Notes: generated by a model from the letters alone, not told the origin. Shown: positions 8,346 through 60,440, counted from the stretch's first letter. The stretch is 64,000 nucleotides of DNA from Candidatus Omnitrophota bacterium (GCA_030674475.1 JAUSCZ010000035.1:74682-138681); one strand, 5' to 3'. Numbers and translations: made by a program.

Positions 8346-8435
8346 GGACCCTCGCTCCGCTCGGGAGTAGCCAGAGGCCAGTTGCCAGAGGCCAGATTTT
8401 TTTCTGGCTTCTGGCTTCTGGTTTCTGGTTACTAC
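8346..8435. repeat. 5'-UTR heptamer-repeat element: CCCTCGCTCCGCTCGGGAG-CCAGAGGCCAGTTGCCAGAGGCCAG-T7-CTGGCTTCTGGCTTCTGGTTTCTGGTTACT (copy 1 of 3)
   Basis: Near-identical to 58158-58243 and partially to 56055-56089. Lies immediately 5' of the rnfE ATG. The CCAGAGG and CTGGYTT arms can pair through G-U wobbles. Confidence 0.7.
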
Positions 8436-11753: not shown

Positions 11754-11782
11754 GTAGGGGCAGGTTCAGAACCTGCCCCTAC
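11754..11782. repeat. REP-like palindrome variant GTAGGGGCAGGTTCAGAACCTGCCCCTAC overlapping the stop codon of the MiaB-like gene; likely terminator
   Basis: Perfect inverted repeat read from the sequence. Its left arm GTTAAATCAGTAGGGG is duplicated at 11684-11699. Confidence 0.65.
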
Positions 11783-13140
11783 ACTTTTTCCGCGATAAGG
11801 CCGTCTTTGTGGATTTTTAGCGGCCGGGCGGTAACAATTGTATTTACCGCGATTCCCGGCCCCTCAGGGAGAAATACCTTGATATAATTTCCGCTATGGC
11901 TGGGGAAAAATCCATCATCCGCGAAGCCGCCTGGCGATTCAACCAGCACGTCCAGATCCTTACCAATATATTGCCGGCAGAAATCCCGCGCTAATTCCTG
12001 AGCCAATTCCCGCGCCTGCTTTATCCTATCTTTGATAATCTCGGGCCTCACCGTTGCCGGAAATCTCCAAGCGGCTGTATTCTTACGTGGGCTAAAAGGA
12101 AAGATGTGTATCTTTGCCGGGCGGACTTCTCTTAAAAAATTAAGGGTATTCTTAAAATTTTCCTCTTCTTCCCCGGGAAAACCCACCATAATATCGGTAG
12201 TCAACCCGATATCCGGCATAAGCCTCCTCAGCTTAAGGATTAACTCGCGGCAATCTTCAGCTGAGGCCTTGCGGTTCATCAACTTCAATAGTGTATCATC
12301 CCCACTTTGAAAAGAAATATGCAGATGAGGCATCAGCTTCTTAGAGGAAGCCATCTTTTCTGTCAGGCAATCGCGGACATCCAGGGCTTCAATTGAGCTA
12401 AGCCGGATACGCGAAATCCCGTCAATTTCCTCTAAGGCTTCAATAACCCTAAGCAAGCCGTCTTTAAGGCCCAGATCCTTTCCATAAGCGCCTAAGCAAA
12501 TCCCGCAAAGCACTATCTCCTTATAGCCGTTTTCAGCTAAACCTCTGGCTTCCTCAATAATTTCCACTAAAAAGCGGCTGCGGGATGAACCGCGCAATCT
12601 GGGAATTATACAATAAGAACAGCCGTTATCACAACCGTCCTGAACCTTCAGGAATGCCCGGGTGTGCCTATGAAAAGCGCTGATGGTTCGACTACGCTCA
12701 CCATCAATCCTGAGCGAAATCGAAGGACTGATGGTTGGTTTTTTAATACCTGATAACAGTTCAACTCTGGGAAGTAACTGTGTCATTGCGAGGGGTTTTT
12801 CAGTGTTAGCTAAAATAAAATCGGCAAGACGGTCTTTCTCTTGGTTTCCTAAAACCCCTGCCACCCCTTTAAAGCGCTTTAGCTTCTCCGGGTCATTTTC
12901 CGCGGAACAACCGGTAACAAAAACCCGGGCCCGGGGGTGAGAGCGAGAGAGTTTGCGAATCTCCTCTTGAGATAAAGTATCGGCCCTGCGGGTAACCGCG
13001 CAGGTATTCACTATATACACATCCGCGCCGGGTGAATCCTTGCTCTCTTTAAATCCCAGGGCAATCATTCTCTCCCGCAGAACCTGGCTTTCATATTGAT
13101 TAACCTTACAACCTAAAGTTTTAACCTCAAATGTTTTCAT
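11779..13140 (-). CDS. MiaB/RimO-family radical SAM methylthiotransferase (ORF called to 13173; probable start at 13140, MKTFEVKTLGC)
   Basis: N-terminal MTTase cysteines (KTLGCKVNQYES), a radical SAM CSYC motif, and a C-terminal TRAM-like region. Confidence 0.8.
   Translation of the reverse strand: MKTFEVKTLGCKVNQYESQVLRERMIALGFKESKDSPGADVYIVNTCAVTRRADTLSQEEIRKLSRSHPRARVFVTGCSAENDPEKLKRFKGVAGVLGNQEKDRLADFILANTEKPLAMTQLLPRVELLSGIKKPTISPSISLRIDGERSRTISAFHRHTRAFLKVQDGCDNGCSYCIIPRLRGSSRSRFLVEIIEEARGLAENGYKEIVLCGICLGAYGKDLGLKDGLLRVIEALEEIDGISRIRLSSIEALDVRDCLTEKMASSKKLMPHLHISFQSGDDTLLKLMNRKASAEDCRELILKLRRLMPDIGLTTDIMVGFPGEEEENFKNTLNFLREVRPAKIHIFPFSPRKNTAAWRFPATVRPEIIKDRIKQARELAQELARDFCRQYIGKDLDVLVESPGGFADDGFFPSHSGNYIKVFLPEGPGIAVNTIVTARPLKIHKDGLIAEKV
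12680..12732. repeat. in-frame intragenic palindromic element, family A copy 1 (CTGATGGTTCGACTACGCTCACCATCAATCCTGAGCGAAATCGAAGGACTGAT)
   Basis: 52 of 53 nt identical to 13693-13745, which lies inside a different gene and reading frame. Confidence 0.8.
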
Positions 13141-13141
13141 A

Positions 13142-13930
13142 CTATGACGTGAATAAACGCAAAAAGGCCACAACGCTGATTGCCGCGGTATCTACCTTCA
13201 AAACCAAATCTCCCAAAGACGCCCCAATACAACCGTTTTCCTTGGCTGACTTGATTTCCCGTGGGCTAAAATCGCCTTCCGGGCCGATAAAAATTATTAT
13301 TGAGGAGGGCTTAGTGCGCTGTGTAATAAAATCGCAAAAAACCTCTTTTAGGGATTTATTTCCTGGGCCTAAATGCGGAATAACCGCCAGTTCATAATTT
13401 TTTACCTGAGAGACAACTTTACTAAATTCACTGATCGGCTCAATCTCCGGAAGTTTTATCCTGCCGCACTGCTTAGAGGCCTCAACCGCAATCGCCTGCC
13501 AGCGCTTCAGCTTTTCTTTAGCCTTCTCAGGAGAATATTTAACTATGGTTCTTTCAGTCTTTATAGGTATAATCCTATCCACACCCAGATCCACGGTCTT
13601 TTCAATAATATAGTCCATCTTGACTTTCTTAGGCAGGGCGCAGGCTAAAGTGAGAGCTAATTCTGCAGACATAGCTTTTCTGACTTTACCCACTGATGGT
13701 TCGACTACGCTCACCATCAATCCTGAGCGAAGTCGAAGGACTGATAACTCCACCTTATTCTTAGCAATACTATCAATCAGACACTCGTATTCCCGGGACT
13801 TACCGTCAAAAACCAGCACCTGGTCTCCTTTTTTAAGCCGCCTAACCGAAGACAAGTGATGAATCTGGCCGGGGTCTAAAATAGTTATTCTATCCCGGAT
13901 TATATTCGCGCGAGGGCAATAGATACGCAT
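13142..13930 (-). CDS. rsmE: 16S rRNA (uracil1498-N3)-methyltransferase RsmE
   Basis: PUA-like N-terminal domain plus a SPOUT C-terminal domain, ~260 aa. Confidence 0.7.
   Translation of the reverse strand: MRIYCPRANIIRDRITILDPGQIHHLSSVRRLKKGDQVLVFDGKSREYECLIDSIAKNKVELSVLRLRSGLMVSVVEPSVGKVRKAMSAELALTLACALPKKVKMDYIIEKTVDLGVDRIIPIKTERTIVKYSPEKAKEKLKRWQAIAVEASKQCGRIKLPEIEPISEFSKVVSQVKNYELAVIPHLGPGNKSLKEVFCDFITQRTKPSSIIIFIGPEGDFSPREIKSAKENGCIGASLGDLVLKVDTAAISVVAFLRLFTS
13693..13745. repeat. in-frame intragenic palindromic element, family A copy 2
   Basis: Same 53 nt as 12680-12732. Translated in rsmE as SVLRLRSGLMVSVVEPSV, versus ISPSISLRIDGERSRTISA in the MiaB-like gene. Confidence 0.8.
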
Positions 13931-16219: not shown

Positions 16220-17864
16220 AAGTATATTTTTCGGTTTTCGCGTCCTTCCAGGAGTCAGCAGGCAAGCCTGCCTTATGAGCGCATAAATTAGAAAGGAACT
16301 CCTCCTTATTCCAGCCGGTCTCTTCAGCCACCTGAGGCAAAAATACCCCCTGGCTCCACCCCCGTTTGATCAACAAACCGTGCGTGCCTAACTGAAACTC
16401 AGCCACATCATCAATCTTTTTTAAAGGCGAGAGGACCGAAATTTCAATCTCAATATCCTTAAGCTCATCCTTGGTTACCGGCTCAAACCGGGGATCTCCG
16501 GTTGCCGACTCTATGGCCATATCCCTGATGGTTTCAAAAAGAGGCTTCTGGCCGATAATATTACCGATACAGCCTTTTAGCTTACCTTGCTTATGGATAG
16601 TTACAAAGGCACCGTTAATAGCCTTTAGCTGAGGATCATCTTCGCTAAAATCTAATTTTTTCCCGCTGGTTACATATTCCTGAATAGTCTTACGGGCAAT
16701 CTCCAGTAATCGCGCTTTCTGCGTATCATTCAACATAACTGTTTCTCCTGTCTTATCCTTATTAATTAAAGCTGATAAATACCCCACAGTCCACACCCCT
16801 TTTATCTTTTTACCGGAAACCTTAGCGGAATTAGTATGCCCCAAAAACTTTATTTGATTATAGCCTAAGCTTTGCGCGGTAAGTATCGCGCTGACCACCG
16901 GCAATCCCCCGCACATCTGGATTGAACCGTCTTTTAACTTCGCGTAAATATCCTGGGCAGACCCCGTTAGAAGCCTCTTACCGCTTTCAGATTGCTCCCC
17001 AGCTTCTAACGGGGCAGGCATCTTCCCTAAATAGGACAAAGTCAGCTTATCTACTCTCTCGGTTTCCTGGTAGTCATAACTGTGGCAAAGGTCCGTGGAA
17101 GCAATCAGCAACACATCTGAACGGCCCGCGATGGCTTTATTTAATATATCCGCCAAAACATTTAAACCGTGAAGGTCCGCGTCTCCAATCAAAATGGGAA
17201 CTATCTTAAAATCATCCAGGGTCTTTTGTAAGAAAGGAAGCTGAACCTCAATGGAATGTTCTTTTTCAAAAGCCTGAGGGATAAAGCTAATATTTTGGGA
17301 AGGAGAAATTATTTTTTGCGTAAAATCAGAGTCTACTTCTAGGTCTCCCAGGGGGGTTTGGAACTTACCGGATGGATATACTGAGACTCCCTTAAAATAA
17401 TACTGGTGACTGGGCCCCAGGAGGACCACGGTTTTATAAGGACGGCCTTTAATTAACTTATAGCCCAAGGCGGCGGTCGGCCCGGAGAAATCATAGCCGG
17501 CATGGGGAGAAATCAAACAAAATATTTCGCCTGTGGTGAGCGGTGGGTTGGCCGCGTTAAGCAGGTTTTCAACTTTATGGCTAAGCTCATCTTTATCCGC
17601 GGGATAAAACTGCCCGGCCACATTCGGTTTTTTTATCTCCTCGCCAAAGCTTAGGACATTAAAGCCAAAAAGCGCTCCCCCAAAAAAAAGGAAAAAAACA
17701 ATTGCTGTCCCTACTTTTCTCTTTGAAAAAAAGGAACTTCCCCCTTTCGTAAAGGGGGATGGAGGGGGATTTTCTAGGTTAGGGGAAATTTGGGAGCATT
17801 TACACAATGCACTAAGCCCAGATTCCGGCGATTGTTTCCTGACAAAACTTGCAATGCCCATCAA
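16185..17864 (-). CDS. AmmeMemoRadiSam system fusion protein: Memo1-like (protein B) plus AMMECR1 (protein A) domains, with N-terminal hydrophobic segment; start codon uncertain
   Basis: The Memo-like core is ISPHAGYDFSG...LCHSYDY. The AMMECR1 core is GAFVTIHKQGKLKGCIGNI...DPRF. A radical SAM partner is adjacent. Confidence 0.7.
   Translation of the reverse strand: MMGIASFVRKQSPESGLSALCKCSQISPNLENPPPSPFTKGGSSFFSKRKVGTAIVFFLFFGGALFGFNVLSFGEEIKKPNVAGQFYPADKDELSHKVENLLNAANPPLTTGEIFCLISPHAGYDFSGPTAALGYKLIKGRPYKTVVLLGPSHQYYFKGVSVYPSGKFQTPLGDLEVDSDFTQKIISPSQNISFIPQAFEKEHSIEVQLPFLQKTLDDFKIVPILIGDADLHGLNVLADILNKAIAGRSDVLLIASTDLCHSYDYQETERVDKLTLSYLGKMPAPLEAGEQSESGKRLLTGSAQDIYAKLKDGSIQMCGGLPVVSAILTAQSLGYNQIKFLGHTNSAKVSGKKIKGVWTVGYLSALINKDKTGETVMLNDTQKARLLEIARKTIQEYVTSGKKLDFSEDDPQLKAINGAFVTIHKQGKLKGCIGNIIGQKPLFETIRDMAIESATGDPRFEPVTKDELKDIEIEISVLSPLKKIDDVAEFQLGTHGLLIKRGWSQGVFLPQVAEETGWNKEEFLSNLCAHKAGLPADSWKDAKTEKYTFSALVFSEKKQ
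16961..17019. repeat. in-frame intragenic palindromic element, family B copy 1 (ACCCCGTTAGAAGCCTCTT...CTTCTAACGGGGCAGGC)
   Basis: About 85% identical to 35410-35470. Encodes MPAPLEAGEQSESGKRLLTGS in the middle of the Memo-AMMECR1 protein. Confidence 0.75.
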
Positions 17865-19728: not shown

Positions 19729-19804
19729 TGGTGGACCCGAGCGGGATCGAACCGCTGACCTCTACAATGCGAATGTAGCGTTCTCCCAGCTGAACTACGG
19801 GCCC
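19729..19804 (-). tRNA. tRNA-Ala (anticodon CGC), CCA encoded
   Basis: Hand-folded cloverleaf: acceptor GGGCCCG/CGGGTCC with the G3-U70 Ala identity pair, anticodon stem CTACA/TGTAG with loop TTCGCAT, and a TTCGATC T-loop. Confidence 0.85.
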
Positions 19805-20253: not shown

Positions 20254-20257
20254 TTTT

Positions 20258-20327
20258 ACCCCTCCCCGCCTCCCCTTGCTAAGGGGAGGATTTCTTGTCG
20301 TAGGGGCGGGTTCGAACCCGCCCCTAC
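20258..20327. repeat. composite intergenic element: SD-sequestering hairpin module (CCCCTCCCCGCCTCCCCTTGCTAAGGGGAGGATTTCTT) plus REP palindrome GTAGGGGCGGGTTCGAACCCGCCCCTAC
   Basis: Fills the whole 76-nt intergenic gap and ends 4 nt from the pilin ATG. Copies occur at 37752-37821, 38456-38495 and 59380-59424, with related arms at 26623-26760. Confidence 0.8.
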
Positions 20328-25666: not shown

Positions 25667-26078
25667 TTTCTTCCTCCCTTTTAATCACCATCGCCCTGGA
25701 TGGCGCAGGATATGAAAACATCTCTAATTTATAAACCACCTCAATTCCCTCTTTGGTTATGGCGGTAATAGCCGCGTCTTGCACCTTGTCCCCGATTCTA
25801 AAAATCTTACCCCCAATAATCACCTGAGGCACCGGCCCTCCGGCCACCAGCCCCTCCACAAGGATTGCCGGAGGCACAATTTTTTCTTTAACAGAAACGG
25901 CTTCCGGCGGCTTAACCACAGGCGCGGCCCCGGGAAGCTGTTTTTCAAAGGGGTCACGCAGATTAAAGGCGGCATATTCCGTTTTCACGGTTTGGGCTTG
26001 GGCCAGGGATAGAAACCCAAGAATAAACAAATAAATACTCAAACCCGATATGGGCATTCTTGAAGCGCTATGTCTCAT
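25656..26078 (-). CDS. PilP-like pilus assembly lipoprotein (hypothetical)
   Basis: Signal peptide, proline-rich linker and a small beta domain. Located between the secretin and PilO-like genes. Confidence 0.45.
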   Translation of the reverse strand: MRHSASRMPISGLSIYLFILGFLSLAQAQTVKTEYAAFNLRDPFEKQLPGAAPVVKPPEAVSVKEKIVPPAILVEGLVAGGPVPQVIIGGKIFRIGDKVQDAAITAITKEGIEVVYKLEMFSYPAPSRAMVIKREEENDK

Positions 26079-26611
26079 TGCCCCTTAATATAGGTAATAC
26101 CCACCGTCATAGTCAAGGATAGAATATTTGGTTCAGCCGGATTATCGCTATTTTTAAGCGAAATGCTTTCAATCTGCAGTATATCTTTCTGAGACTCTAA
26201 AACGCTTATAAATTTAGCCAGGTTATGATAACTGCCTTTAAGCGCCAGCTCAAACAATGCCGCGCTGGAAAAATCACTATTTTGCTCTTTAGCGGGAGAA
26301 ACAGAGGCCACCTTCACTCCGGCTTTAGACGCGAATTCGTGAAAGGACTGCGCGCTCCAAGCCGGCTCTTTCTTAAGATACGGCCCGGCGTCCTGAGATA
26401 TTTTCTTATCCAACCCGGCCAACTCCTGAGCCAACTGAATCCTTTGCTCTTGGATGGCTATCTCTTCTTTTAAGGCCGCGGTTTTATCTTTTTGGATCTT
26501 ATATATCCGCGAGGCCGCCAGTAAAGCCAAAATTAGAATCACCAAAAAAATAAGCTTATCCTTATTTTTTAATATTGCCTGAAGATTTATATTATTAATT
26601 GAAAAAGCCAT
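26075..26611 (-). CDS. PilO/PilN-like bitopic pilus alignment protein (ORF track extends to 26806 through repeat DNA; start likely at 26611, MAFSINN)
   Basis: TM helix, a coiled-coil (AALKEEIAIQEQRIQLAQELAGL) and a C-terminal alpha/beta domain. The upstream in-frame extension is the repeat element region. Confidence 0.55.
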   Translation of the reverse strand: MAFSINNINLQAILKNKDKLIFLVILILALLAASRIYKIQKDKTAALKEEIAIQEQRIQLAQELAGLDKKISQDAGPYLKKEPAWSAQSFHEFASKAGVKVASVSPAKEQNSDFSSAALFELALKGSYHNLAKFISVLESQKDILQIESISLKNSDNPAEPNILSLTMTVGITYIKGQ

Positions 26612-26622
26612 AGTCTTTACCC

Positions 26623-26760
26623 GTAGGGGCGGGTTCGAACCCGCCCCTACCCCCGATAAGGGGAGGATTTCTTTCCGCCTGCCCCGCCAGCGGCGGTGGC
26701 CTCCCCCTGATAAAGGAAGTTTTCTTATCCCCTCCTTTACAAGGAGGGGTAGGGGAGGTA
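26623..26760. repeat. composite repeat: REP palindrome GTAGGGGCGGGTTCGAACCCGCCCCTAC followed by several CCCC/GGGGAGG-type hairpins
   Basis: Read directly from the sequence. Sits in the intergenic region between the PilM-like stop (26766) and the PilO-like start (26611). Confidence 0.75.
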
Positions 26761-26765
26761 TTTTT

Positions 26766-28319
26766 TTAGCTGCCGGAAATTTCAAAAACCGTAATCTTGT
26801 ATCCACCGCTCTGGGTATTGCGGGTAGAGGTTATCTCCAGGCGGCTTAAGCCAGCCATAAAATCAGGGCTCTCTTTAAGCTTTTTTAAGAAATCAGCTAT
26901 TGCCTCTTCCTCTCGCGCCTTATCCCCCAGATAAATCGCGCCTTTAAGTAAAAGCGATTTTGCTTTATCCTTTACCCCGGCCACAAGGTCAAACTGCTCA
27001 ATCCACAAGCCGGTGCGGACTGTCTCAGGCAGGACATTAAAAGACACAGTCAAGGACACCCGGGAAGCAATTAATTCCTGGATAAATAAAAGTTTTTTCT
27101 TATATTCCACCCTTCTCTGACGCAGGCCATCCAAATCCAGAATGCCTAAGTTCGCCGGGGCCAAGGCGCTTTCAGCCTCAGATTTTATGCGCTCTAAATT
27201 CTTAGCAGTGCTGAACTGTTCGGGCAAAGGAAAACCATAGGCCGCGGCCACTACTACCGCCGCCAGCACTAAAGGCCGCTTAACCGTATCAAAGCTAAGA
27301 GTGAATGCCGGAGCGGGAGCTGATATGTCTTTAGGCGCGCTCAAGCGGTATTCTTTGCGCGATTTTAATAAATCTACAGATAAATTTACCTTTATGGTAT
27401 CTCTGAGGCCTACGGCACAGGCCTTAAACGCGTCCAAGTCAGTCAAGGTGTTTAAAGCGCTATTCTGATCTAATTCCAATAACTGCACCTCTATACTTAA
27501 GTTTTTGCTCAATTCGGAGATTAGCCCGGGATTAGCATTTTTAGCCACCAGGATAATCTTATCCACCGAAGAGCCGGAAAATTGCCGGCGGAAATAACCT
27601 AGGGAAACCCTGAGCTCGCTGGTTAAGCGTTCCTGAGAAACCACCTCCGCGCCGCTTCCTGTGGAAGGCGCGTCCTGGGCCCGGGCGAGCCGGACATCCC
27701 GGCTAAAACAGGGAAAACCCGCGTTCACTATGGAAAACTCCATATCCAAATCATCATCAATAGCCATAAACGCGATAGACTGCTTAAGGTCAAGCTGTTT
27801 AGCGGCTGAAATTATCCTGAGCAAGGCAAAACTGGCCGATTCAATAGCCTTTAACTGAATACCCATTTGCTTAAATAAGCTAAGATAATAATCAAAGTTA
27901 CTCCTGGTAGCCGCCACATAGAAGATATCCATCTTGTCTGAACCTTTATTTAAGCGATGCTGATAGTCAAAAACCAGGTCCTCGGTTTTAAAAGGGAGAT
28001 ACTTCCTGGCCTCAAAGCTTATCCCGGAGGCAATTTCGGATTTTACCAGAGAAGGAATCTGAAAACCCCGGATAAAAAGGTCCTTGCTGGTAAGGCCAAG
28101 CACTGCTTCCCGAGCGCTAAATTTATTCTCTTTAAGAAATCCCTTGATCTCCCGCGACAAGTTGGCCTGAGCGCTGTCTTCGGCTGTCGGAGTGCCGGTT
28201 AAAGCCTTATCCGCCGCAACCGCTATAGCTAAGCTGGCCTGCCGGATAATATCCTTGCCCCGCAGTTCAACCGCGACAATCTTATCTTTGCCAAAATATA
28301 TTCCTAATTTATTTCCCAT
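26766..28319 (-). CDS. pilM: type IV pilus assembly protein PilM (actin-like ATPase fold), probably fused to PilN-like C-terminal TM segment
   Basis: PilM-like N-terminus (MGNKLGIYFGKDKIVAVEL), with a C-terminal TM segment LVLAAVVVAAAYGF. Confidence 0.65.
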   Translation of the reverse strand: MGNKLGIYFGKDKIVAVELRGKDIIRQASLAIAVAADKALTGTPTAEDSAQANLSREIKGFLKENKFSAREAVLGLTSKDLFIRGFQIPSLVKSEIASGISFEARKYLPFKTEDLVFDYQHRLNKGSDKMDIFYVAATRSNFDYYLSLFKQMGIQLKAIESASFALLRIISAAKQLDLKQSIAFMAIDDDLDMEFSIVNAGFPCFSRDVRLARAQDAPSTGSGAEVVSQERLTSELRVSLGYFRRQFSGSSVDKIILVAKNANPGLISELSKNLSIEVQLLELDQNSALNTLTDLDAFKACAVGLRDTIKVNLSVDLLKSRKEYRLSAPKDISAPAPAFTLSFDTVKRPLVLAAVVVAAAYGFPLPEQFSTAKNLERIKSEAESALAPANLGILDLDGLRQRRVEYKKKLLFIQELIASRVSLTVSFNVLPETVRTGLWIEQFDLVAGVKDKAKSLLLKGAIYLGDKAREEEAIADFLKKLKESPDFMAGLSRLEITSTRNTQSGGYKITVFEISGS

Positions 28320-28641: not shown

Positions 28642-28758
28642 AATCTGCCTCTGGCGCTTAGATTTTACTTGATTCTGAGCTCTGCGAAGAATCTTAAGGA
28701 ACAATCTGCCTCTGGCGCTTAGATTTTACTTGATTCTGAGCTCTGCGAAGAATCTTAA
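28642..28758. repeat. two tandem 61-bp direct repeats (AATCTGCCTCTGGCGCTTAGATTTTACTTGATTCTGAGCTCTGCGAAGAATCTTAA...), motif AGATTTTACTTG present 3 times
   Basis: Read from the sequence. Lies upstream of the excisionase-like gene, so these are candidate operator/iteron sites or a small RNA. Confidence 0.7.
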
Positions 28759-28913
28759 TAATTTTGTTATGAAACGCATAAAATAATACCGCGCGCGAAA
28801 ACTCAAAAAAAAACACCAGCAAGCCAAACCTGTTTTGCTGGCGGATACCATAGCTCATATATAATTAAAATTATTTCATAACTAACTGCTATAAATATAG
28901 TTATAAAGAGTTC

Positions 28914-29532: not shown

Positions 29533-29694
29533 ATATTTTTATGATTCAGATGTATTCATTTTACTGCTGTTTTCCTGAAGTTATAATCCCTATTCCTACC
29601 AAGTGAGCCCAATCTATTTTGCTGGCGGATAACGCAGCCATCAATTAATTCATAACTAACTGCTATAAATATAGTTGTAAAGAATGTCCCTGGC

Positions 29695-35054: not shown

Positions 35055-35473
35055 TGGTCACATCCAGTTCTATTAATAAGGCCGCCTTGGTTAGTAATAG
35101 TCATATTCCTACCACTACAGGCCAAACCGGAAACCGCGCGGGTAGCCGTGGCAGTAAAGCTTGGGCTGGTGGTGGCGTTAATAGAATAAGTAAAACTGTC
35201 TCCTTCTAAATCAATCCCTAAATTCTCAGTATCATTAGTATACTCTCCCTCGTTCAAATAATACCTCTGCTGGGCAGAGTAGATTAATTGCAGGTTAGCC
35301 TCGGCTTCTTTGGCCTTATTTTTCTCTGAAGATCGGCTAAAATTACCCATATTCAGGCTAACCAAAATCCCGATAATTACCAAAACCACCAGCAACTCAA
35401 TCATAGTAAACCCCGTTAGAAGCCTCTTGCCTCTTACAGGTTGCTCATTAACTTCTAACGGGGCAGGCCCCAT
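35048..35473 (-). CDS. type IV pilin with 21-aa leader (ORF track starts at TTG 35485; ATG at 35473 has an AGGAGA SD upstream)
   Basis: ...GKRLLTG|FTMIELLVVLVIIGILVS prepilin cleavage/methylation site. Confidence 0.7.
   Translation of the reverse strand: MGPAPLEVNEQPVRGKRLLTGFTMIELLVVLVIIGILVSLNMGNFSRSSEKNKAKEAEANLQLIYSAQQRYYLNEGEYTNDTENLGIDLEGDSFTYSINATTSPSFTATATRAVSGLACSGRNMTITNQGGLINRTGCDQW
35410..35470. repeat. family B palindromic element copy 2, encoding the pilin leader peptide
   Basis: About 85% identical to 16961-17019. The CCCCGTTAGAAG / CTTCTAACGGGG arms are an inverted repeat. Confidence 0.75.
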
Positions 35474-36091
35474 TTTCACTTGCAAATCTCCTTATAAGTG
35501 CGATAAATCGCACCGCTACGCAACATGAGATAAATCGCCTACCTGCGGTAAGCAGGCACCGCTACGCGACATGAGTGACCCACGGTAGGCGGAGGTAAAA
35601 CCCGCGCCCTTATCACTCCCAAGGAGCAACTGCATCTCAGAGTATCGGTATAACCAACTCAAGAACAGACTTTTAAAAACTCCTGCTATAATAAAAAACC
35701 AAGCTCTACTTTTTAAGGGTAGCTTGGCTTCGCACTCTAAGAATAAAACCGAGTGCTCTTTTCTTGTTTGAGCTTAACAACTTGGCTTTATTCTGGTTTT
35801 AAAGTTAAGTTGTCGGTGCGCCAGGCTACCTTATCCAGAGGGCTTTCCCCTCCTTTACTTCTGGTAAGACTTAGGTCCTTTAGCTTTGCGCCCCGCGGTT
35901 TCCCGCGGTTTGCCCCGGCCTTAATTTCCTGTGCCGGCCTACCGGTTTCCTGTTTGCGCGGTAGATTTTCGGATGTGGTAATTAAAGTATACACCATAAA
36001 AGAACTAATTACAAGGGTAAAACCGCCTTTTCAGGAAAGCGCTTTCTTGGGAGGAATTTTATCGGTTGAACTCTTTGGTTATCGCTTAGCT

Positions 36092-37747: not shown

Positions 37748-37751
37748 TTTT

Positions 37752-37821
37752 ACCCCTCCCCGCCTCCCTTTGTTAAGGGGAGGATTTCTCCCCGTAGGGG
37801 CGGGTTCGAACCCGCCCCTAC
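37752..37821. repeat. composite intergenic element (SD-hairpin module plus REP palindrome) between exbB stop and exbD start
   Basis: ACCCCTCCCCGCCTCCCTTTGTTAAGGGGAGGATTTCTCCCCGTAGGGGCGGGTTCGAACCCGCCCCTAC. The exbB stop codon TAG lies inside the palindrome. Confidence 0.8.
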
Positions 37822-38450: not shown

Positions 38451-38455
38451 TTTCT

Positions 38456-38495
38456 TACCCCTCCCCGCCTCCCCTTGTTAAGGGGAGGATTTTTT
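38456..38495. repeat. SD-hairpin module copy (CCCCTCCCCGCCTCCCCTTGTTAAGGGGAGGATTTTTT) directly upstream of exbB ATG
   Basis: Read from the sequence; this copy has no REP palindrome attached. Confidence 0.8.
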
Positions 38496-38499
38496 GCCT

Positions 38500-38640
38500 C
38501 CAACAAGTTATTAAACTCTAAATCCTAAATTCTAAACTCGAAACCCTAAACAAATCCCAAACCCAAAACATTATATTTTTAGTTTTGAGTTTATGATTTT
38601 GCCTGCCTGCCGGCAGGCAGGAGTTTGTTTAGGATTTAGG
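38500..38640. terminator. large inverted-repeat region (CTAAATCCTAAA... / ...TTTAGGATTTAGGG arms around the perfect palindrome GCCTGCCTGCCGGCAGGCAGG)
   Basis: Read from the sequence; lies downstream of the TPR gene stop. Confidence 0.55.
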
Positions 38641-45186: not shown

Positions 45187-45438
45187 TTATTTTTTGGACT
45201 TCTTCTTTTTCTTGCCGCCCCTGACCATCTTGGCGCAGGAGATATCACCCTGTTTATCCACAAAATAGAGATAACCGGATTCCTTCTCCACCCCTACCTT
45301 GGCCACCTTCTCAGGCTTACCGCCTTTTTTGCCGCCCCTGGCCATCTTGGCGCAGGAGATATCACCGGCCTTGTCCACAAAGTAGAGATACCCATCTTTC
45401 CTCTTTATCCCGGCCTTTGCTACTTTTTTTTGTGCCAT
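45187..45438 (-). CDS. small lysine-rich protein with internal ~40-aa tandem duplication (GYLYFVDKxGDISCAKMxRGGKK x2)
   Basis: A strong SD (GAGGGGAGGTG) lies 8 nt upstream of the ATG. The antisense + ORF is judged spurious. Confidence 0.55.
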   Translation of the reverse strand: MAQKKVAKAGIKRKDGYLYFVDKAGDISCAKMARGGKKGGKPEKVAKVGVEKESGYLYFVDKQGDISCAKMVRGGKKKKKSKK

Positions 45439-56054: not shown

Positions 56055-56068
56055 TCTCTGGTTGCTGG

Positions 56069-57256
56069 TTACTGGTTTCTGGTTACTACAGTCAACACCA
56101 TATCCAATATCCCCACTGCCTTATCAATCTGCTTGCAAGTTACATTTAAGGCCGGCATCAGCCTTAAGACCGTTTCGTGAGTGCAGTTAATCAATAAACC
56201 TCTTTTAATACACTCCTCGACTACCGGCTTCCCTGCCGTATTCAGTTCAATGCCAATCATCAACCCCAGGCCGCGGACTTCTTTGATTATAGAATATTTC
56301 TTAGCCAACTCTGATAATCTCTTTTTTAAATATTCCCCCATTTCCCGGGCATTGGCAATCAGCTTTTCTTTACGCAGGGCCTTAAATACCCCTAAAGAGG
56401 CCCTACAGACCAGAGGGCTCCCTCCAAAGGTAGAGGCATGTCTTCCCGGGCCCAGGATATCAGCAATTTCTTTTCTCGCCACCATTGCTCCGATAGGTAA
56501 ACCCCCTCCCAGGGCCTTGGCTAAGGTCATTATATCCGGAGTGATTCCGTAGTGCTGATACGCGAACATCTTGGCAGTCCGGCCTAGGCCGGTCTGGACC
56601 TCATCCGCGATCAAAAGTATCTTTTTCTCATCGCAAAGCTTTCTTAAATATAAGACAAAATCCTGATCGGCAACATTTATCCCTCCTTCGCCCTGCACCA
56701 GCTCAATAATAATTCCCGCGGTTTTATCCGATAGCGCGTTTTTCAAGGCATCCCTGTCATTATAGGCAACGCTTTTAAAACCCTCAGGAAGCGGTTCGAA
56801 GCCCTCTTGATATTTGCTCTGACCGGTCATAGTCAGGGACGCCAGGGTCCTGCCGTGAAAGGAATTCTCAAATGAGATTATCTCATATCTGCCCGCGCCA
56901 TACGCCCGGGTGAGCTTTACCGCGGCCTCATTGGCCTCAGCCCCGGAATTGGCAAAAAACACCTTACCGGGAAAGGAGTGATAAATTATTTCTTTGGCTA
57001 ATTTTGCCTGGGGAATAGACAGGTAATTGTTAGGCAGATGAATCAGCTTATCTATCTGGTCCCGGACCGCCGAGACCACATCCGGATGGCAATGCCCCAA
57101 AGAACTCACCCCCCAGCCGGGAAAGAAATCCAGGTATTCCTTGCCGTCAACATCAATAACCTTCATCCCCTTTCCTTTGACAAAAATCAAAGGTATCCGG
57201 GTATAGGTAGGCATGATGTAATCCTGATAGGCCTGAAAGATTTCTTGCTTCTTCAT
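56069..57256 (-). CDS. argD: acetylornithine aminotransferase (class III)
   Basis: Class III PLP-aminotransferase signature (...ADEVQTGLGRTA...). Confidence 0.85.
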   Translation of the reverse strand: MKKQEIFQAYQDYIMPTYTRIPLIFVKGKGMKVIDVDGKEYLDFFPGWGVSSLGHCHPDVVSAVRDQIDKLIHLPNNYLSIPQAKLAKEIIYHSFPGKVFFANSGAEANEAAVKLTRAYGAGRYEIISFENSFHGRTLASLTMTGQSKYQEGFEPLPEGFKSVAYNDRDALKNALSDKTAGIIIELVQGEGGINVADQDFVLYLRKLCDEKKILLIADEVQTGLGRTAKMFAYQHYGITPDIMTLAKALGGGLPIGAMVARKEIADILGPGRHASTFGGSPLVCRASLGVFKALRKEKLIANAREMGEYLKKRLSELAKKYSIIKEVRGLGLMIGIELNTAGKPVVEECIKRGLLINCTHETVLRLMPALNVTCKQIDKAVGILDMVLTVVTRNQ

Positions 57257-58157: not shown

Positions 58158-58243
58158 GTGCCCTCGCTCCGCTCGGGAGAAACCAGAGGCCAGTTGCCAG
58201 AGACCAGATTTTTCTGGTTACTGGTTACTGGTTTCTGGTTACT
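58158..58243. repeat. 5'-UTR heptamer-repeat element copy 2 (same as 8346-8435), immediately upstream of argB ATG
   Basis: CCCTCGCTCCGCTCGGGAGAAACCAGAGGCCAGTTGCCAGAGACCAGATTTTTCTGGTTACTGGTTACTGGTTTCTGGTTACT. Confidence 0.75.
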
Positions 58244-59379
58244 TAGTTATATTTCGCGTTTATCCTGATATATTCCGGGGTCAGGTCTGAAGTGTAAACT
58301 ACGGCCTTACCTCTGCCAAGTCTTAAATCTATCTTGACTATTATATCCTTTTTCCGGAAAGAATCACCCTCTATTTTTATTTTTTCTCTTACCTCTACCC
58401 CGGATGCCCCCACCGCCGCCACTATCCTTCCCCAGTTAGCGCCTCCGCCGTAAACAGCGGTCTTGAAAAGATTGGAATTGGCCACGGCCAAAGCCGCTTT
58501 TTTAGCCTGCGTATTATCCTTGGCTCCGGATACCTGAATAGTTATAAACTTGCTGGCTCCTTCAGCATCCAAAATAATCATCTTGGCTAAACCCAGGCAA
58601 ATTTCACTTAAGGCAGTTTTAAATTTAGAAAAATTACGCGTGCCTAAACAGACTTTCTTGTTTTCCGCTAACCCGTTAGCCAAAATAATCACGCTGTCAT
58701 TAGTGCTCATACATCCGTCAATAGTAATCATATTAAAAGAATATTCAACTGCCTGCTTCAAGGCCTCTTTTAATGCCGAATACTCGATCAAGACATCCGT
58801 AGTGATAAAGCAAAGCATCGTAGCCATATCCGGAGCAATCATTCCCGCGCCCTTGGCAATTGCCCCGATAGTTACTTTTTTTCCGCCTATCTCTAACTCC
58901 CGCGCTAAGGCCTTGGGCTTAGTATCGGTAGTCATTATAGCCTGGGCTGTCTTATTACCGCTGCTTCTATCTAAAGAGCCAACCAAAGACGGCAAGGCCT
59001 TCTTTATCTTGGAGAAATCAAGCGGACGGCCAATAATTCCGGTTGAGGCAACCAGCACCATTTTTTTATCTATTCCCAACAACTCCGCGCTAAGGCAGGT
59101 GGTGTTCTTGGCCGTTTCCATTCCCGGCTTTCCGGTATAGCAATTAGCATTCCCACTGTTGACTATTATAGCTTGGGCTTTTTTTGATTTCAGATATTCC
59201 CGGCAAAGCTCAACCGGAGCCGCGGCAAACTTATTTTTGGTAAACATACCACAGGCGGATGCCGGGACATCGGAATATATCAAAGCCAAATCCAGGCCGC
59301 TGGATTTCTTTATCCCCGCCTCTATTGCCTGAGATCTAAACCCCTTAGCCAGGGTTATAGCGTTTTTATACTCTTTCAT
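58243..59379 (-). CDS. argJ: bifunctional ornithine acetyltransferase / N-acetylglutamate synthase
   Basis: ATMLCFITTD autoproteolytic site region. Confidence 0.85.
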   Translation of the reverse strand: MKEYKNAITLAKGFRSQAIEAGIKKSSGLDLALIYSDVPASACGMFTKNKFAAAPVELCREYLKSKKAQAIIVNSGNANCYTGKPGMETAKNTTCLSAELLGIDKKMVLVASTGIIGRPLDFSKIKKALPSLVGSLDRSSGNKTAQAIMTTDTKPKALARELEIGGKKVTIGAIAKGAGMIAPDMATMLCFITTDVLIEYSALKEALKQAVEYSFNMITIDGCMSTNDSVIILANGLAENKKVCLGTRNFSKFKTALSEICLGLAKMIILDAEGASKFITIQVSGAKDNTQAKKAALAVANSNLFKTAVYGGGANWGRIVAAVGASGVEVREKIKIEGDSFRKKDIIVKIDLRLGRGKAVVYTSDLTPEYIRINAKYN

Positions 59380-60440
59380 ACCCCTCCCCGCCTCCCCTTG
59401 TTAAGGGGAAGATTTCTTAACAGGCCCTCGGTTTCTTTAAAGCCGCAGAGCAAATTCATATTCTGCACTGCTTGAGCCGAAGCGCCCTTAAGCAAATTAT
59501 CTATCGCGGAAATTATAATAATTGTTTTCTGATCCGTACTAATCTTAACGCCGATATCGCAAAAGCTGGTTCCCTGAACATCCCTCAAACAAGGAAATTC
59601 GCCTTCGTTTTTTATCCTCACCAAAGGCTTATCCTTATAGTATTTTTTATAAATATTTATTAACTGGTGGCTGGTGGCTGGTGGCTGATGGCTGACTTTC
59701 ATATATATCGTTTCCAAAATTCCCCTTTCTATGGGCAAAAGATGGGGAACAAAGGTAACCTTTATCTTTTTCTTGGCCAGCTTAGACAGCTCCTGCTCTA
59801 TTTCAGGCGTATGCTGATGGGCATCAACCTTATAGGCCTTGAAATTGTCCTTTAGTTCGAGCCAGAAAGGATCATCCGCCGGCTTTCTGCCGGCTCCGCT
59901 GTAACCGCTTTTGGCATCAATAATAATCTCTCGCGGGCTAAGTTTTTCTTTTAATAAGGGAGCCAGGGCCAAAATCGCCGCGGTGGGGTAACATCCGGGA
60001 TTAGCTATAAAATCCGCCTTTTCTATCTTTAAACCGTTAATCTCCGGCAAGCCATAAATTGCCTTTTTAATATTCGCCTTATCCTTATGCTTGACCTTAT
60101 ACCAGGCTTCATAAAGCTCCCAGTCATTCAGCCGGTAATCCGCGCTTAAATCAATAACCTTTTTCCCTCCCCTTAGCAGGACGGGAACCACATCCATAGA
60201 GTTGGTATGCGGCAAGGCCAGGAAAAACAAATCCGCGGATTGGACGGCCTTAGTTAGATTAAGATTATCGCAATACAGATCCAACCGGCCCTTAAATTGA
60301 GGAAAAATTTCAGCTATCGGAACCGGCTTATCCAGCCTGGCCGTGAGATAACTTATCTTTACCTGGGGATGTCTTAACAAAATCCTGATTAACTCTTCCC
60401 CGGTATATCCCCTTACCCCGATTATTCCTACCCTCACCAT
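59376..60440 (-). CDS. argC: N-acetyl-gamma-glutamyl-phosphate reductase
   Basis: Semialdehyde dehydrogenase family (GVRGYTG, active-site Cys region). Carries two embedded repeat tracts: a (CTGGTGG)n run at 59664-59694 and the SD-hairpin module at 59380-59424. Confidence 0.85.
   Translation of the reverse strand: MVRVGIIGVRGYTGEELIRILLRHPQVKISYLTARLDKPVPIAEIFPQFKGRLDLYCDNLNLTKAVQSADLFFLALPHTNSMDVVPVLLRGGKKVIDLSADYRLNDWELYEAWYKVKHKDKANIKKAIYGLPEINGLKIEKADFIANPGCYPTAAILALAPLLKEKLSPREIIIDAKSGYSGAGRKPADDPFWLELKDNFKAYKVDAHQHTPEIEQELSKLAKKKIKVTFVPHLLPIERGILETIYMKVSHQPPATSHQLINIYKKYYKDKPLVRIKNEGEFPCLRDVQGTSFCDIGVKISTDQKTIIIISAIDNLLKGASAQAVQNMNLLCGFKETEGLLRNLPLNKGRRGGV
59380..59424. repeat. SD-hairpin module copy embedded in the 3' end of argC, supplying the argC C-terminus (LLRNLPLNKGRRGGV*) and the RBS/start of argJ
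   Basis: ACCCCTCCCCGCCTCCCCTTGTTAAGGGGAAGATTTCTTAACAGG. The argC TGA stop overlaps the argJ ATG (ATGA). Confidence 0.8.

Follow-up and report, generated by a model that had tools for sequence, protein, structure and literature searches.

A 39-nt mobile palindromic repeat that probably carries its own Shine-Dalgarno sequence to gene starts in a Candidatus Omnitrophota bacterium

The window, as we call the whole 64,000-nt stretch of DNA analysed here (Candidatus Omnitrophota bacterium, GCA_030674475.1 JAUSCZ010000035.1:74682-138681), carries four near-identical copies of a short module, each placed directly before the start codon of a gene on the minus strand. Pfam assigns the four downstream products to a type IV pilin-like protein (which bears an N-methylation motif), ExbD, ExbB and ArgJ, and each start matches that of homologues. 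By its ArgC, ExbB and further proteins, the window belongs to Omnitrophota. Read on the gene strand, the module follows the consensus AAGAAATCCTCCCC-TTNNCAA-GGGGAGG-C-GGGGAGGGG-TA. The copies themselves can be written as (A)AGAAATC(C/T)TCCCC-TTA(A/G)CAA-(G/A)GGGAGG-C-GGGGAGGGG-TA or, with the 5' part rendered differently, as AAGAAATC(C/T)TCCCC-TTA(A/G)CAA followed by (G/A)GGGAGG-C-GGGGAGGGG-TA. The 17-mer CCCCTCCCCGCCTCCCC matches the plus strand at 20259, 37753 (with 1 mismatch), 38458 and 59381; shuffled versions of the window contained 0.23 matches on average, and four were reached in none of 100 shuffles. A tRNA gene (19732-19804, minus strand) lies immediately 3' of the pilin gene that bears copy 1, and a c-di-GMP-I riboswitch aptamer (35812-35924, minus strand; 47 bits, above the gathering score) is found upstream of a minus-strand gene in the type IV pilus/exbBD neighbourhood.

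Past the terminal TA of the module, the sequence continues as AAA-ATG at both pilin and exbD, as AGAAA-ATG at exbB and as TG at argJ. The last GGGG of the module lies 5, 5, 7 and 1 nt from the ATG of pilin, exbD, exbB and argJ, respectively, and the GGAGG core of its tail lies 7, 7 and 9 nt from the first three and only 3 nt from argJ. Random placement of the copies within the intergenic DNA, some 5.9 kb in total, would put a start 0-7 nt downstream of all four with a probability of about 5e-5. A sequence-only reading of this DNA had described both the four near-identical copies and the strong Shine-Dalgarno (SD)-like tracts 1-7 nt before four unrelated start codons. The 17-mer counts and the comparison of starts with homologues agree with it on these two points. 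The coordinates are collected in Table 1.

Table 1. Module copies and GTAG-tagged palindromes in the window, in positions of the whole stretch
Feature	Position	Strand	Remarks
Module copy 1	20256..20296	-	AAGAAATCCTCCCC-TTAGCAA-GGGGAGG-C-GGGGAGGGG-TA; pilin ATG 20253; nhmmer E=8.6e-15
Module copy 2	37750..37789	-	One stem mismatch (AGGGAGG); exbD ATG 37747
Module copy 3	38455..38495	-	exbB ATG 38450; orthologous copy in L148-L151 and L127
Module copy 4	59378..59419	-	39-nt insertion in argC/argJ ATGA overlap; argJ ATG 59379
Truncated module AAGAAATCCTCCCCTTATC	26655..26673	-	G-rich half replaced by GTAG palindrome; before pilO
Degenerate module TAAGAAAACTTCCTTTATCAGGGGGAGGC	26699..26727	-	Followed by nested hairpin CCACCGCCGCTGGCGGGGCAGG; before pilO
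GTAG-tagged palindrome GTAGGGGCGGGTTCGAACCCGCCCCTAC (REP-type)	20300..20327	.	Separates module copy 1 from the stop of the upstream gene
GTAG palindrome GTAGGGGCGGGTTCGAACCCGCCCCTAC	37794..37821	.	Directly 5' of module copy 2; GTAG gives the exbB TAG stop
GTAG palindrome GTAGGGGCGGGTTCGAACCCGCCCCTAC	26623..26650	.	At the place of the pilO-proximal module's G-rich tail; 11 nt before pilO ATG (26611)

A profile built from all copies (nhmmer) retrieved two decayed copies in the pilM-pilO spacer, beside which a module-related hairpin lies at 26729-26749. The degenerate arms previously suspected at 26651-26760 are therefore real. At the orthologous pilO site of two relatives (L102 and L129) the module is intact, in contrast to the truncated copy of the window. 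The mechanically called PilO ORF (26075-26806, 243 aa, GTG start) passes through this repeat mosaic; translation of pilO almost certainly begins at the ATG at 26611, giving a protein of about 178 aa, as in L102 and L129. The same profile found no match at 17715-17760, which had been proposed as another possible arm. This stretch holds only a loosely similar CCCCC/GGGGG hairpin and was discarded as a module copy.

The companion sequence GTAGGGGCGGGTTCGAACCCGCCCCTAC is a perfect 28-nt palindrome (-24.7 kcal/mol), and its loop and stem resemble a tRNA T-arm (GGTTCGAACC). Twice it is found directly 5' of the module and once in place of the module's G tail; GTAGGGGCGGGTTCGAACCCGCCCCTAC may be a true REP and may target G-rich sequence. 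A degenerate copy of this palindrome is found near 11754-11782.

The history of the module can be followed at the argC/argJ junction. Omnitrophota ArgC proteins are typically about 340 aa long and end in ...ETEGLL, and those of the window and a few close relatives carry at least 13 extra residues. Alignment of the junction with L138-L140, whose ArgC is 86-92% identical, revealed one clean 39-nt gap. The empty site reads GGGTTTGC and then, directly after the insertion point, TATGAGA, and the filled site of the window reads GGCCTGT[TAAGAAATCTTCCCCTTAACAAGGGGAGGCGGGGAGGGG]TATGAAA. When read as the C-terminal tail of ArgC, copy 4 corresponds to the 13 codons of RNLPLNKGRRGGV; since 39 nt preserve the reading frame, ArgC just gains this peptide. 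The sequence-only reading had credited the module with the last 15 codons of ArgC, its stop codon and the ATGA overlap, and had regarded it as a translational-coupling cassette. The actual contribution is 13 codons, the stop codon is native and the ATGA overlap, with its coupling, is ancestral, because both are present in the empty-site relatives. What the module has done is to move the native argJ SD (GAGGG) 39 nt away. The site is also filled in L143-L145. In L146 and L147 it is filled as well, with an extra hairpin, CCACCGCCGTTGGCGGGGCAAG, nested in the G-rich tail, and this nested arrangement recurs in the window at 26699-26727. Over argC-argJ-argB, the nucleotide identity to the window is 0.93 for L138, 0.91 for L146 and 0.85 for L143. 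The closest relative is thus empty and the other two are filled, which requires either that the module was gained once and then lost seamlessly, or that it inserted repeatedly at one and the same nucleotide.

A second filled/empty pair lies within a coding sequence. A 567-aa ORF of a related contig (L105, 4248-5951; homologues P0241-P0268) carries two in-frame module copies, and at one of them a 13-residue insertion, KKSSPYQGEAGRG, sets the protein apart from more distant homologues as well as from P0245 and P0246. In the DNA, the empty site ggCAtagaag becomes ggCA[AGAAATCC...GGGG]CAtagaag, an insertion of exactly 39 nt that is in frame. The N-terminus of this ORF shows transposase-type HTH matches (Tc3/IS630-like), and a weak IS4-like match is found around YLERWPN, all of them below curated cut-offs. 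By sequence, the ORF may represent a divergent DDE transposase. We do not propose it as the enzyme that mobilises the module and have put it aside, given that every transposase-like match falls below its curated cut-off.

The exbB and exbD junctions have likewise been rebuilt by repeats. Distant relatives have compact TPR-exbB-exbD operons, joined by an ATGA overlap and a 4-nt gap in L152 and by 12-nt gaps with ordinary AAGGAGG and AAGGGA sites in L154 and L155. The corresponding spacers of the window measure 185 and 70 nt and are made of repeats. In L148, whose ExbB is 94% identical, the module before exbB is held in common and the filler before exbD is wholly different. For copy 1, an empty site was sought by an exact-protein look-up of the window pilin, which returned no record, so this copy has no filled/empty comparison. 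Regarding the target site, the two filled/empty pairs fit a duplicated TA (argC/argJ) and a duplicated CA (L105 ORF), and over 31 copies the agreement between left and right flanks does not exceed expectation. Since filled and empty sites differ by a clean 39 nt, the module is an inserted and mobile unit. The earlier suggestion of a mobile cassette is borne out by these comparisons.

Several other repeats occupy the window. Upstream of the exbB module, at 38496-38635, lies a hairpin of about 140 nt with telomere-like arms (CCCTAAA/CCTAAA versus TTTAGGG/TTTAGG) and a GC-rich core hairpin; its only Rfam matches are to microRNA precursors, below threshold, and reflect the long hairpin. Long hairpins also fill junctions at 58158-58242, 8346-8431 and 56055-56087, with arms composed of tandem heptads (AACCAGT.../...CTGGNNN). 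These occupy the whole stop-to-start space and end in GAGCGAGGGnnC-ATG, and the ones before argB and an unrelated gene are 92% identical over 59 nt. The argJ-argB junction of L138 (12166-12256) contains a hairpin from a different repeat, GAGTTCATT. Further repeats comprise an exact 56-nt tandem pair (28642-28758), a 41-nt pair upstream of two small paralogous ORFs (28869-28909 and 29643-29683), a 53-nt pair with 98% identity (12680-12732 and 13693-13745), a pair of 59-nt hairpins inside ORFs (16961-17019 and 35410-35468; ACCCCGTTAGAAG...CTTCTAACGGGGCAGGC) and a 102-nt tandem repeat within a plus-strand ORF (45208-45426).

At the RNA level, the module consists of a 5' AAGAAAU tract, a 9-bp G+C-rich hairpin, CCUCCCCUU-NNN-AAGGGGAGG, and the 3' tail C-GGGGAGGGG-UA. 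Nearly all copies retain the AAGAAAT flank. The loop triplet is variable (AAC, ACC, AGC, GCC, ACT, ACG, ATT), the stem is constant across copies, and a C-to-U variant in the arm retains a G-U pair. The hairpin is free of mismatches, and its predicted free energy falls from -14.8 kcal/mol at 37 C to -21 kcal/mol at 10 C. When the four leaders were folded with a partition function, the CCUCCCC arm paired in three of them with the proximal GGGGAGG (6.2-6.6 of 7 pairs), and copy 2, which has a stem mutation, folded differently. The register that masks the tail is predicted to be 8 kcal/mol worse than the proximal one. The tail GGAGG is predicted to be unpaired at 0.3-0.6 in three of the four copies, alike at 10 C and 37 C. 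An Rfam scan of the modules detected no family at the gathering score, and a permissive E-value added only chance-level hairpin matches.

These predictions bear on the proposal that the module is an RNA thermometer or another regulated ribosome-binding site (RBS), whose CCUCCCC arm would sequester the SD until it is released by temperature, a small RNA or a protein, leading to conditional or coupled translation. The anti-SD-like and SD-like arms are perfectly complementary and conserved, the C-to-U changes that keep G-U pairing fit a constraint at the RNA level, copy 1 shows an alternative register in one MFE fold, and orthologous copies are conserved. The postulated stem-loop itself is predicted, but the pairing involves the proximal GGGGAGG and the start-proximal SD is not predicted to be masked. 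Because a single complementary arm faces two SD tracts, one of these is always free, and in the better, proximal register this is the SD adjacent to the AUG. RNA thermometers such as ROSE and fourU mask the sole SD with a weak, mismatch-containing helix. The module resembles them in the anti-SD-like pyrimidine arm that pairs with a GGAGG-containing arm just 5' of the start. Unlike theirs, its helix is perfect and strong, with the same predicted behaviour at both temperatures, and a second, presumably unmasked SD lies nearer to the AUG. Moreover, many copies lie far from starts or inside ORFs, and the downstream genes are functionally unrelated. In view of the predicted energetics and of the two SDs facing a single anti-SD arm, we reject a thermometer or occluded-SD switch, and we consider a regulated RBS of whatever kind quite improbable.

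Other roles for the hairpin can be weighed on the same data. Scans of the sense strand of the module gave no promoter-like (sigma-70-like) or terminator-like signature; the hairpin is followed there by CGGGGAGGGGUA and no U tract, unlike an intrinsic terminator. The antisense strand offers a weak terminator-like match, a hairpin followed by ATTTCTT. The module could accordingly be imagined as an opposite-strand terminator or insulator against antisense transcription, built from a C-rich (rut-like) tract, the hairpin and ATTTCTT/ATTTTTT. A scan flags the plus strand of copies 1 and 3 in this sense (9-bp stem, 3-nt loop, T-rich tail), and both the conserved AAGAAAT flank and the constant orientation relative to genes would fit. 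However, the T tract is short and interrupted, and this explanation leaves the conserved 10-nt G-rich tail without a role and the placement at start codons unexplained, which makes it very unlikely in our judgement. We give even less credence to a DNA or RNA G-quadruplex or protein-binding site (GGGG-A-GG-C-GGGG-A-GGGG) that would control transcription or translation locally. The tail does present three G4 runs plus a GG, and betaproteobacterial relatives have a fourth run (GATGGGG) after the tail, but in the Omnitrophota copies one run is just GG and the first is locked in the stable hairpin.

The G-rich tail is more readily understood as an SD. Other genes of the genome use canonical AGGAGG-type SDs, and many genes of the window have no obvious SD. 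At the four module sites there is no other SD within range, and these same genes carry canonical SDs in relatives that lack the module. Judged from sequence and spacing, the module would now serve as the RBS of at least four unrelated genes (pilin, exbD, exbB and argJ). At argJ, the tail SD is probably too close to the ATG; another SD, 11 nt from the ATG, lies within the hairpin, and the ancestral termination-reinitiation overlap persists. The module is also well preserved. Between the window and L143, the argJ module differs at 1 of 41 positions, and the same number (1 of 41) applies to the exbB module between the window and L148. In these comparisons, fourfold-degenerate sites of the adjacent genes have diverged by about 21%, and the probability of observing at most 2 changes in 80 neutral positions is about 2e-6. 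This conservation could stem from purifying selection on the hairpin and SD, or from homogenisation or gene conversion among copies.

We then consider the wider distribution of the module. Metagenome contigs were scanned with a pattern specific to the subfamily, which recovered 36 loci, and 31 unique 43-mers when the window and other loci are included. The census loci collapse to about 27 distinct genomic sites, of which about 7 have a start codon within 8 nt, with genes called crudely as longest ORFs. These start-adjacent sites are pilin, exbD, exbB and argJ in the window, pilO in L102/L129, ispD in L100 and a tentative one at a small PilZ-like ORF in L125. At three other sites the module is 18-37 nt upstream of a gene with a GGAGG of its own, at six to nine it is 50-125 nt upstream of a gene, in several of these cases inside a longer recurrent unit, and at two or three it is in frame inside an ORF. 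The TAA of TAAGAAATCC doubles as the upstream gene's stop codon at several sites (upstream distance 7). The association with start codons claimed from the window thus holds for all four of its copies, but for only about 7 of the 27 distinct sites in related contigs. Start-codon adjacency as a defining property of the module family is not supported, and, with about one quarter of the distinct sites adjacent to a start, an RBS role is at most a secondary use.

Nearly all Omnitrophota copies are co-oriented with both neighbouring genes. The genomes concerned show a strong bias of genes towards one strand; within the window, about 61 of the 64 called genes are on the minus strand and GC skew is negative throughout, which places the window on one replichore. 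Orientation is consequently confounded with replication strand: selection at the RNA level and replication-strand-specific insertion are inseparable here, and the shared orientation of the four copies, with almost all window genes on one strand, does not count as independent evidence.

The longer unit of the relatives measures about 130 nt, with the module in its middle (GGCTYTTTGGAATTTC...module...TAAGAAAAGCGGCTTTGCGRTAAACRAAT.AATTTACTCACTCAAAACTTCAAAGAAC). Found 66-123 nt before unrelated genes in L104, L106, L110, L111, L114, L119, L122, L130, L136, L013 and L016, it could serve as a promoter or leader cassette. A search of the 64-kb window for this longer unit (GGCTYTTTGGAATTTC ... AAGCGGCTTTGCGRTAAACRAAT ... 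CACTCAAAACTTCAAAGAAC) showed it to be absent.

A looser pattern, YCCCC-N7-RGGGAGGCGGGGAGGGG, was run on species-representative genomes and returned more than 100 stretches from many phyla, often multi-copy and often at contig ends. The look-alikes occur in Rahnella, Rhodocyclaceae, Devosia, Deinococcus caeni, Chloroflexi, CPR, Thermodesulfovibrionales and Omnitrophota UBA12090. They (loci L001-L101) are real hairpins with a GGGGAGGCGGGGAGGGG tail, set in different longer repeats, and in Rahnella, Devosia and others they show mixed orientation to genes and no link to starts. The hairpin plus GGGGAGGCGGGGAGGGG appears, from these sequences, to be a recurring theme across phyla that would reflect convergence or horizontal spread; common descent is not established, as the search pattern itself fixes the G tail. 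The look-alikes also lend some weight to the idea that the module is purely selfish DNA, similar to an SD by composition, and that the downstream genes are translated by coupling or by leaderless-like or A-rich initiation. In many phyla, GGGGAGGCGGGGAGGGG-tailed hairpins are multi-copy, in mixed orientation and away from starts; in addition, many window genes do without an obvious SD and some module copies lie inside ORFs. Against this stand the lack of any other SD in range at the four sites, with canonical SDs in module-free relatives, and the spacing from the GGAGG core to the ATG, which is 7-9 nt, close to the optimum, at three sites. Placement next to starts is also strongly over-represented in the window, and orthologous copies are conserved well above neutral expectation. 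On balance we find the purely selfish reading unlikely.

The module can be compared with several families of known repeats, among which elements that supply translation signals or overlap neighbouring stop and start codons (REP2, MIRU) already exist. MIRUs are G+C-rich intercistronic repeats of 40-100 bp with internal inverted repeats (Supply et al., 1997; reviewed in PMC3184786). They are transcribed in polycistronic mRNA, have ends that overlap the flanking stop and start codons, occur as empty and filled sites, form tandem arrays (VNTRs) and contain small ORFs (PMC3184786). The module likewise lies between genes with its ends overlapping flanking stop or start codons, would be transcribed in polycistronic mRNA, ends 1-8 nt from starts at 7 sites and has both empty and filled sites. 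It differs in consisting of one 39-nt hairpin that bears an explicit double SD, and tandem arrays, sought in the window and the metagenome loci, were not seen. Neisseria REP2 and the Borrelia IR are dispersed immediately upstream of unrelated genes and provide an RBS (Morelle et al., 2003; Dunn et al., 1994; reviewed in PMC3184786), a position and an RBS-like tract that the module shares. REP2, of about 120-150 bp, also carries a promoter and an ATG (PMC3184786), whereas the module has no promoter-like site and its ATG is native, being present in the empty site.

The REP/GTAG palindromes mobilised by RAYT are short, G+C-rich and high in copy number at gene boundaries, and can provide stop codons, occur within ORFs and combine with other repeats into mosaics (PMC3733652). 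The module is also a short G+C-rich palindrome found at gene boundaries, inside ORFs and in repeat mosaics, and is REP-like in size, palindromy and copy number (39-nt unit, 9-bp stem, 4 intact and 2 decayed copies per 64 kb, 36 metagenome loci). Nevertheless, none of its 31 unique copies has a GTAG or CGTC tag, and it is asymmetric, with the 10-nt G tail on one side. Furthermore, it occurs as single, co-oriented units, often upstream of starts, unlike REPs, which lie mainly downstream of genes, in both orientations and often as inverted dimers. Rickettsia palindromic elements (RPE) of 100-150 bp sit in frame in protein-coding genes (PMC3184786). The module can do the same, adding a peptide segment or a C-terminal extension, but RPEs have no link to translation initiation signals. 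It also differs from MITEs, as its ends (AAGAAATC... and ...GGGGAGGGGTA) are not complementary and its only inverted repeat is the internal hairpin. A full-text literature search with 15-17-mers yielded no description of the module and only an unrelated human i-motif paper, and we found no description in the literature of Omnitrophota repeats of this kind.

The reading that we favour, and hold to be likely, is that the module is a mobile palindromic repeat of 37-39 nt belonging to an Omnitrophota lineage, akin to REP, MIRU and RPE elements, which is oriented with the genes and tolerated at start codons by virtue of its own SD. The two SD-like tracts of its sense strand may be there by chance or may have evolved. 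It would insert into gene boundaries, and occasionally into coding sequence, almost always in the orientation of the flanking genes. Within coding sequence, the length of 39 nt would preserve the reading frame. An insertion between an SD and its start codon is normally harmful. An inserting module would push the native SD out of range and at the same time supply a replacement, the start-proximal SD left single-stranded at the 3' foot of the stable hairpin, and it is this replacement that would make the insertion tolerable. At pilin, exbD, exbB and argJ, as well as at pilO and ispD in relatives, the element would be the current RBS, and we infer that copies survive at start codons through this SD rescue and not through targeting. 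As for the mechanism of mobilisation, the strand bias and the apparently seamless loss would be in keeping with a single-strand DNA transposase of the RAYT/IS200 type that recognises hairpins.

A bolder view would regard the module as a self-propagating 'portable ribosome-binding site', that is, a strand-specific 39-nt hairpin that inserts and excises seamlessly, colonises operon stop/start junctions by preference, replaces native SDs, is selectively kept and rewires initiation and cistron stoichiometry throughout an Omnitrophota lineage. It might even be a branch of a cross-phylum class of hairpin-plus-(GGGGAGG)x2 elements that exploit the 16S anti-SD. We regard this view as speculative and rather doubtful. 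The recurrence of a G-rich hairpin motif across phyla merits a proper survey.

On the practical side, gene callers stretch ORFs through such repeats, as illustrated by the ArgC tail and the spurious 243-aa PilO ORF, and assemblers break contigs at them. The 39-nt unit could also be used as a self-insulating RBS part. If the SD function holds true, the module would represent a compact natural mobile element that carries translation-initiation signals and thereby survives insertion where a gene is most sensitive, between an SD and its start codon. In that case, operon junctions and RBS strength would be rewritable by repeat invasion in this uncultivated phylum.
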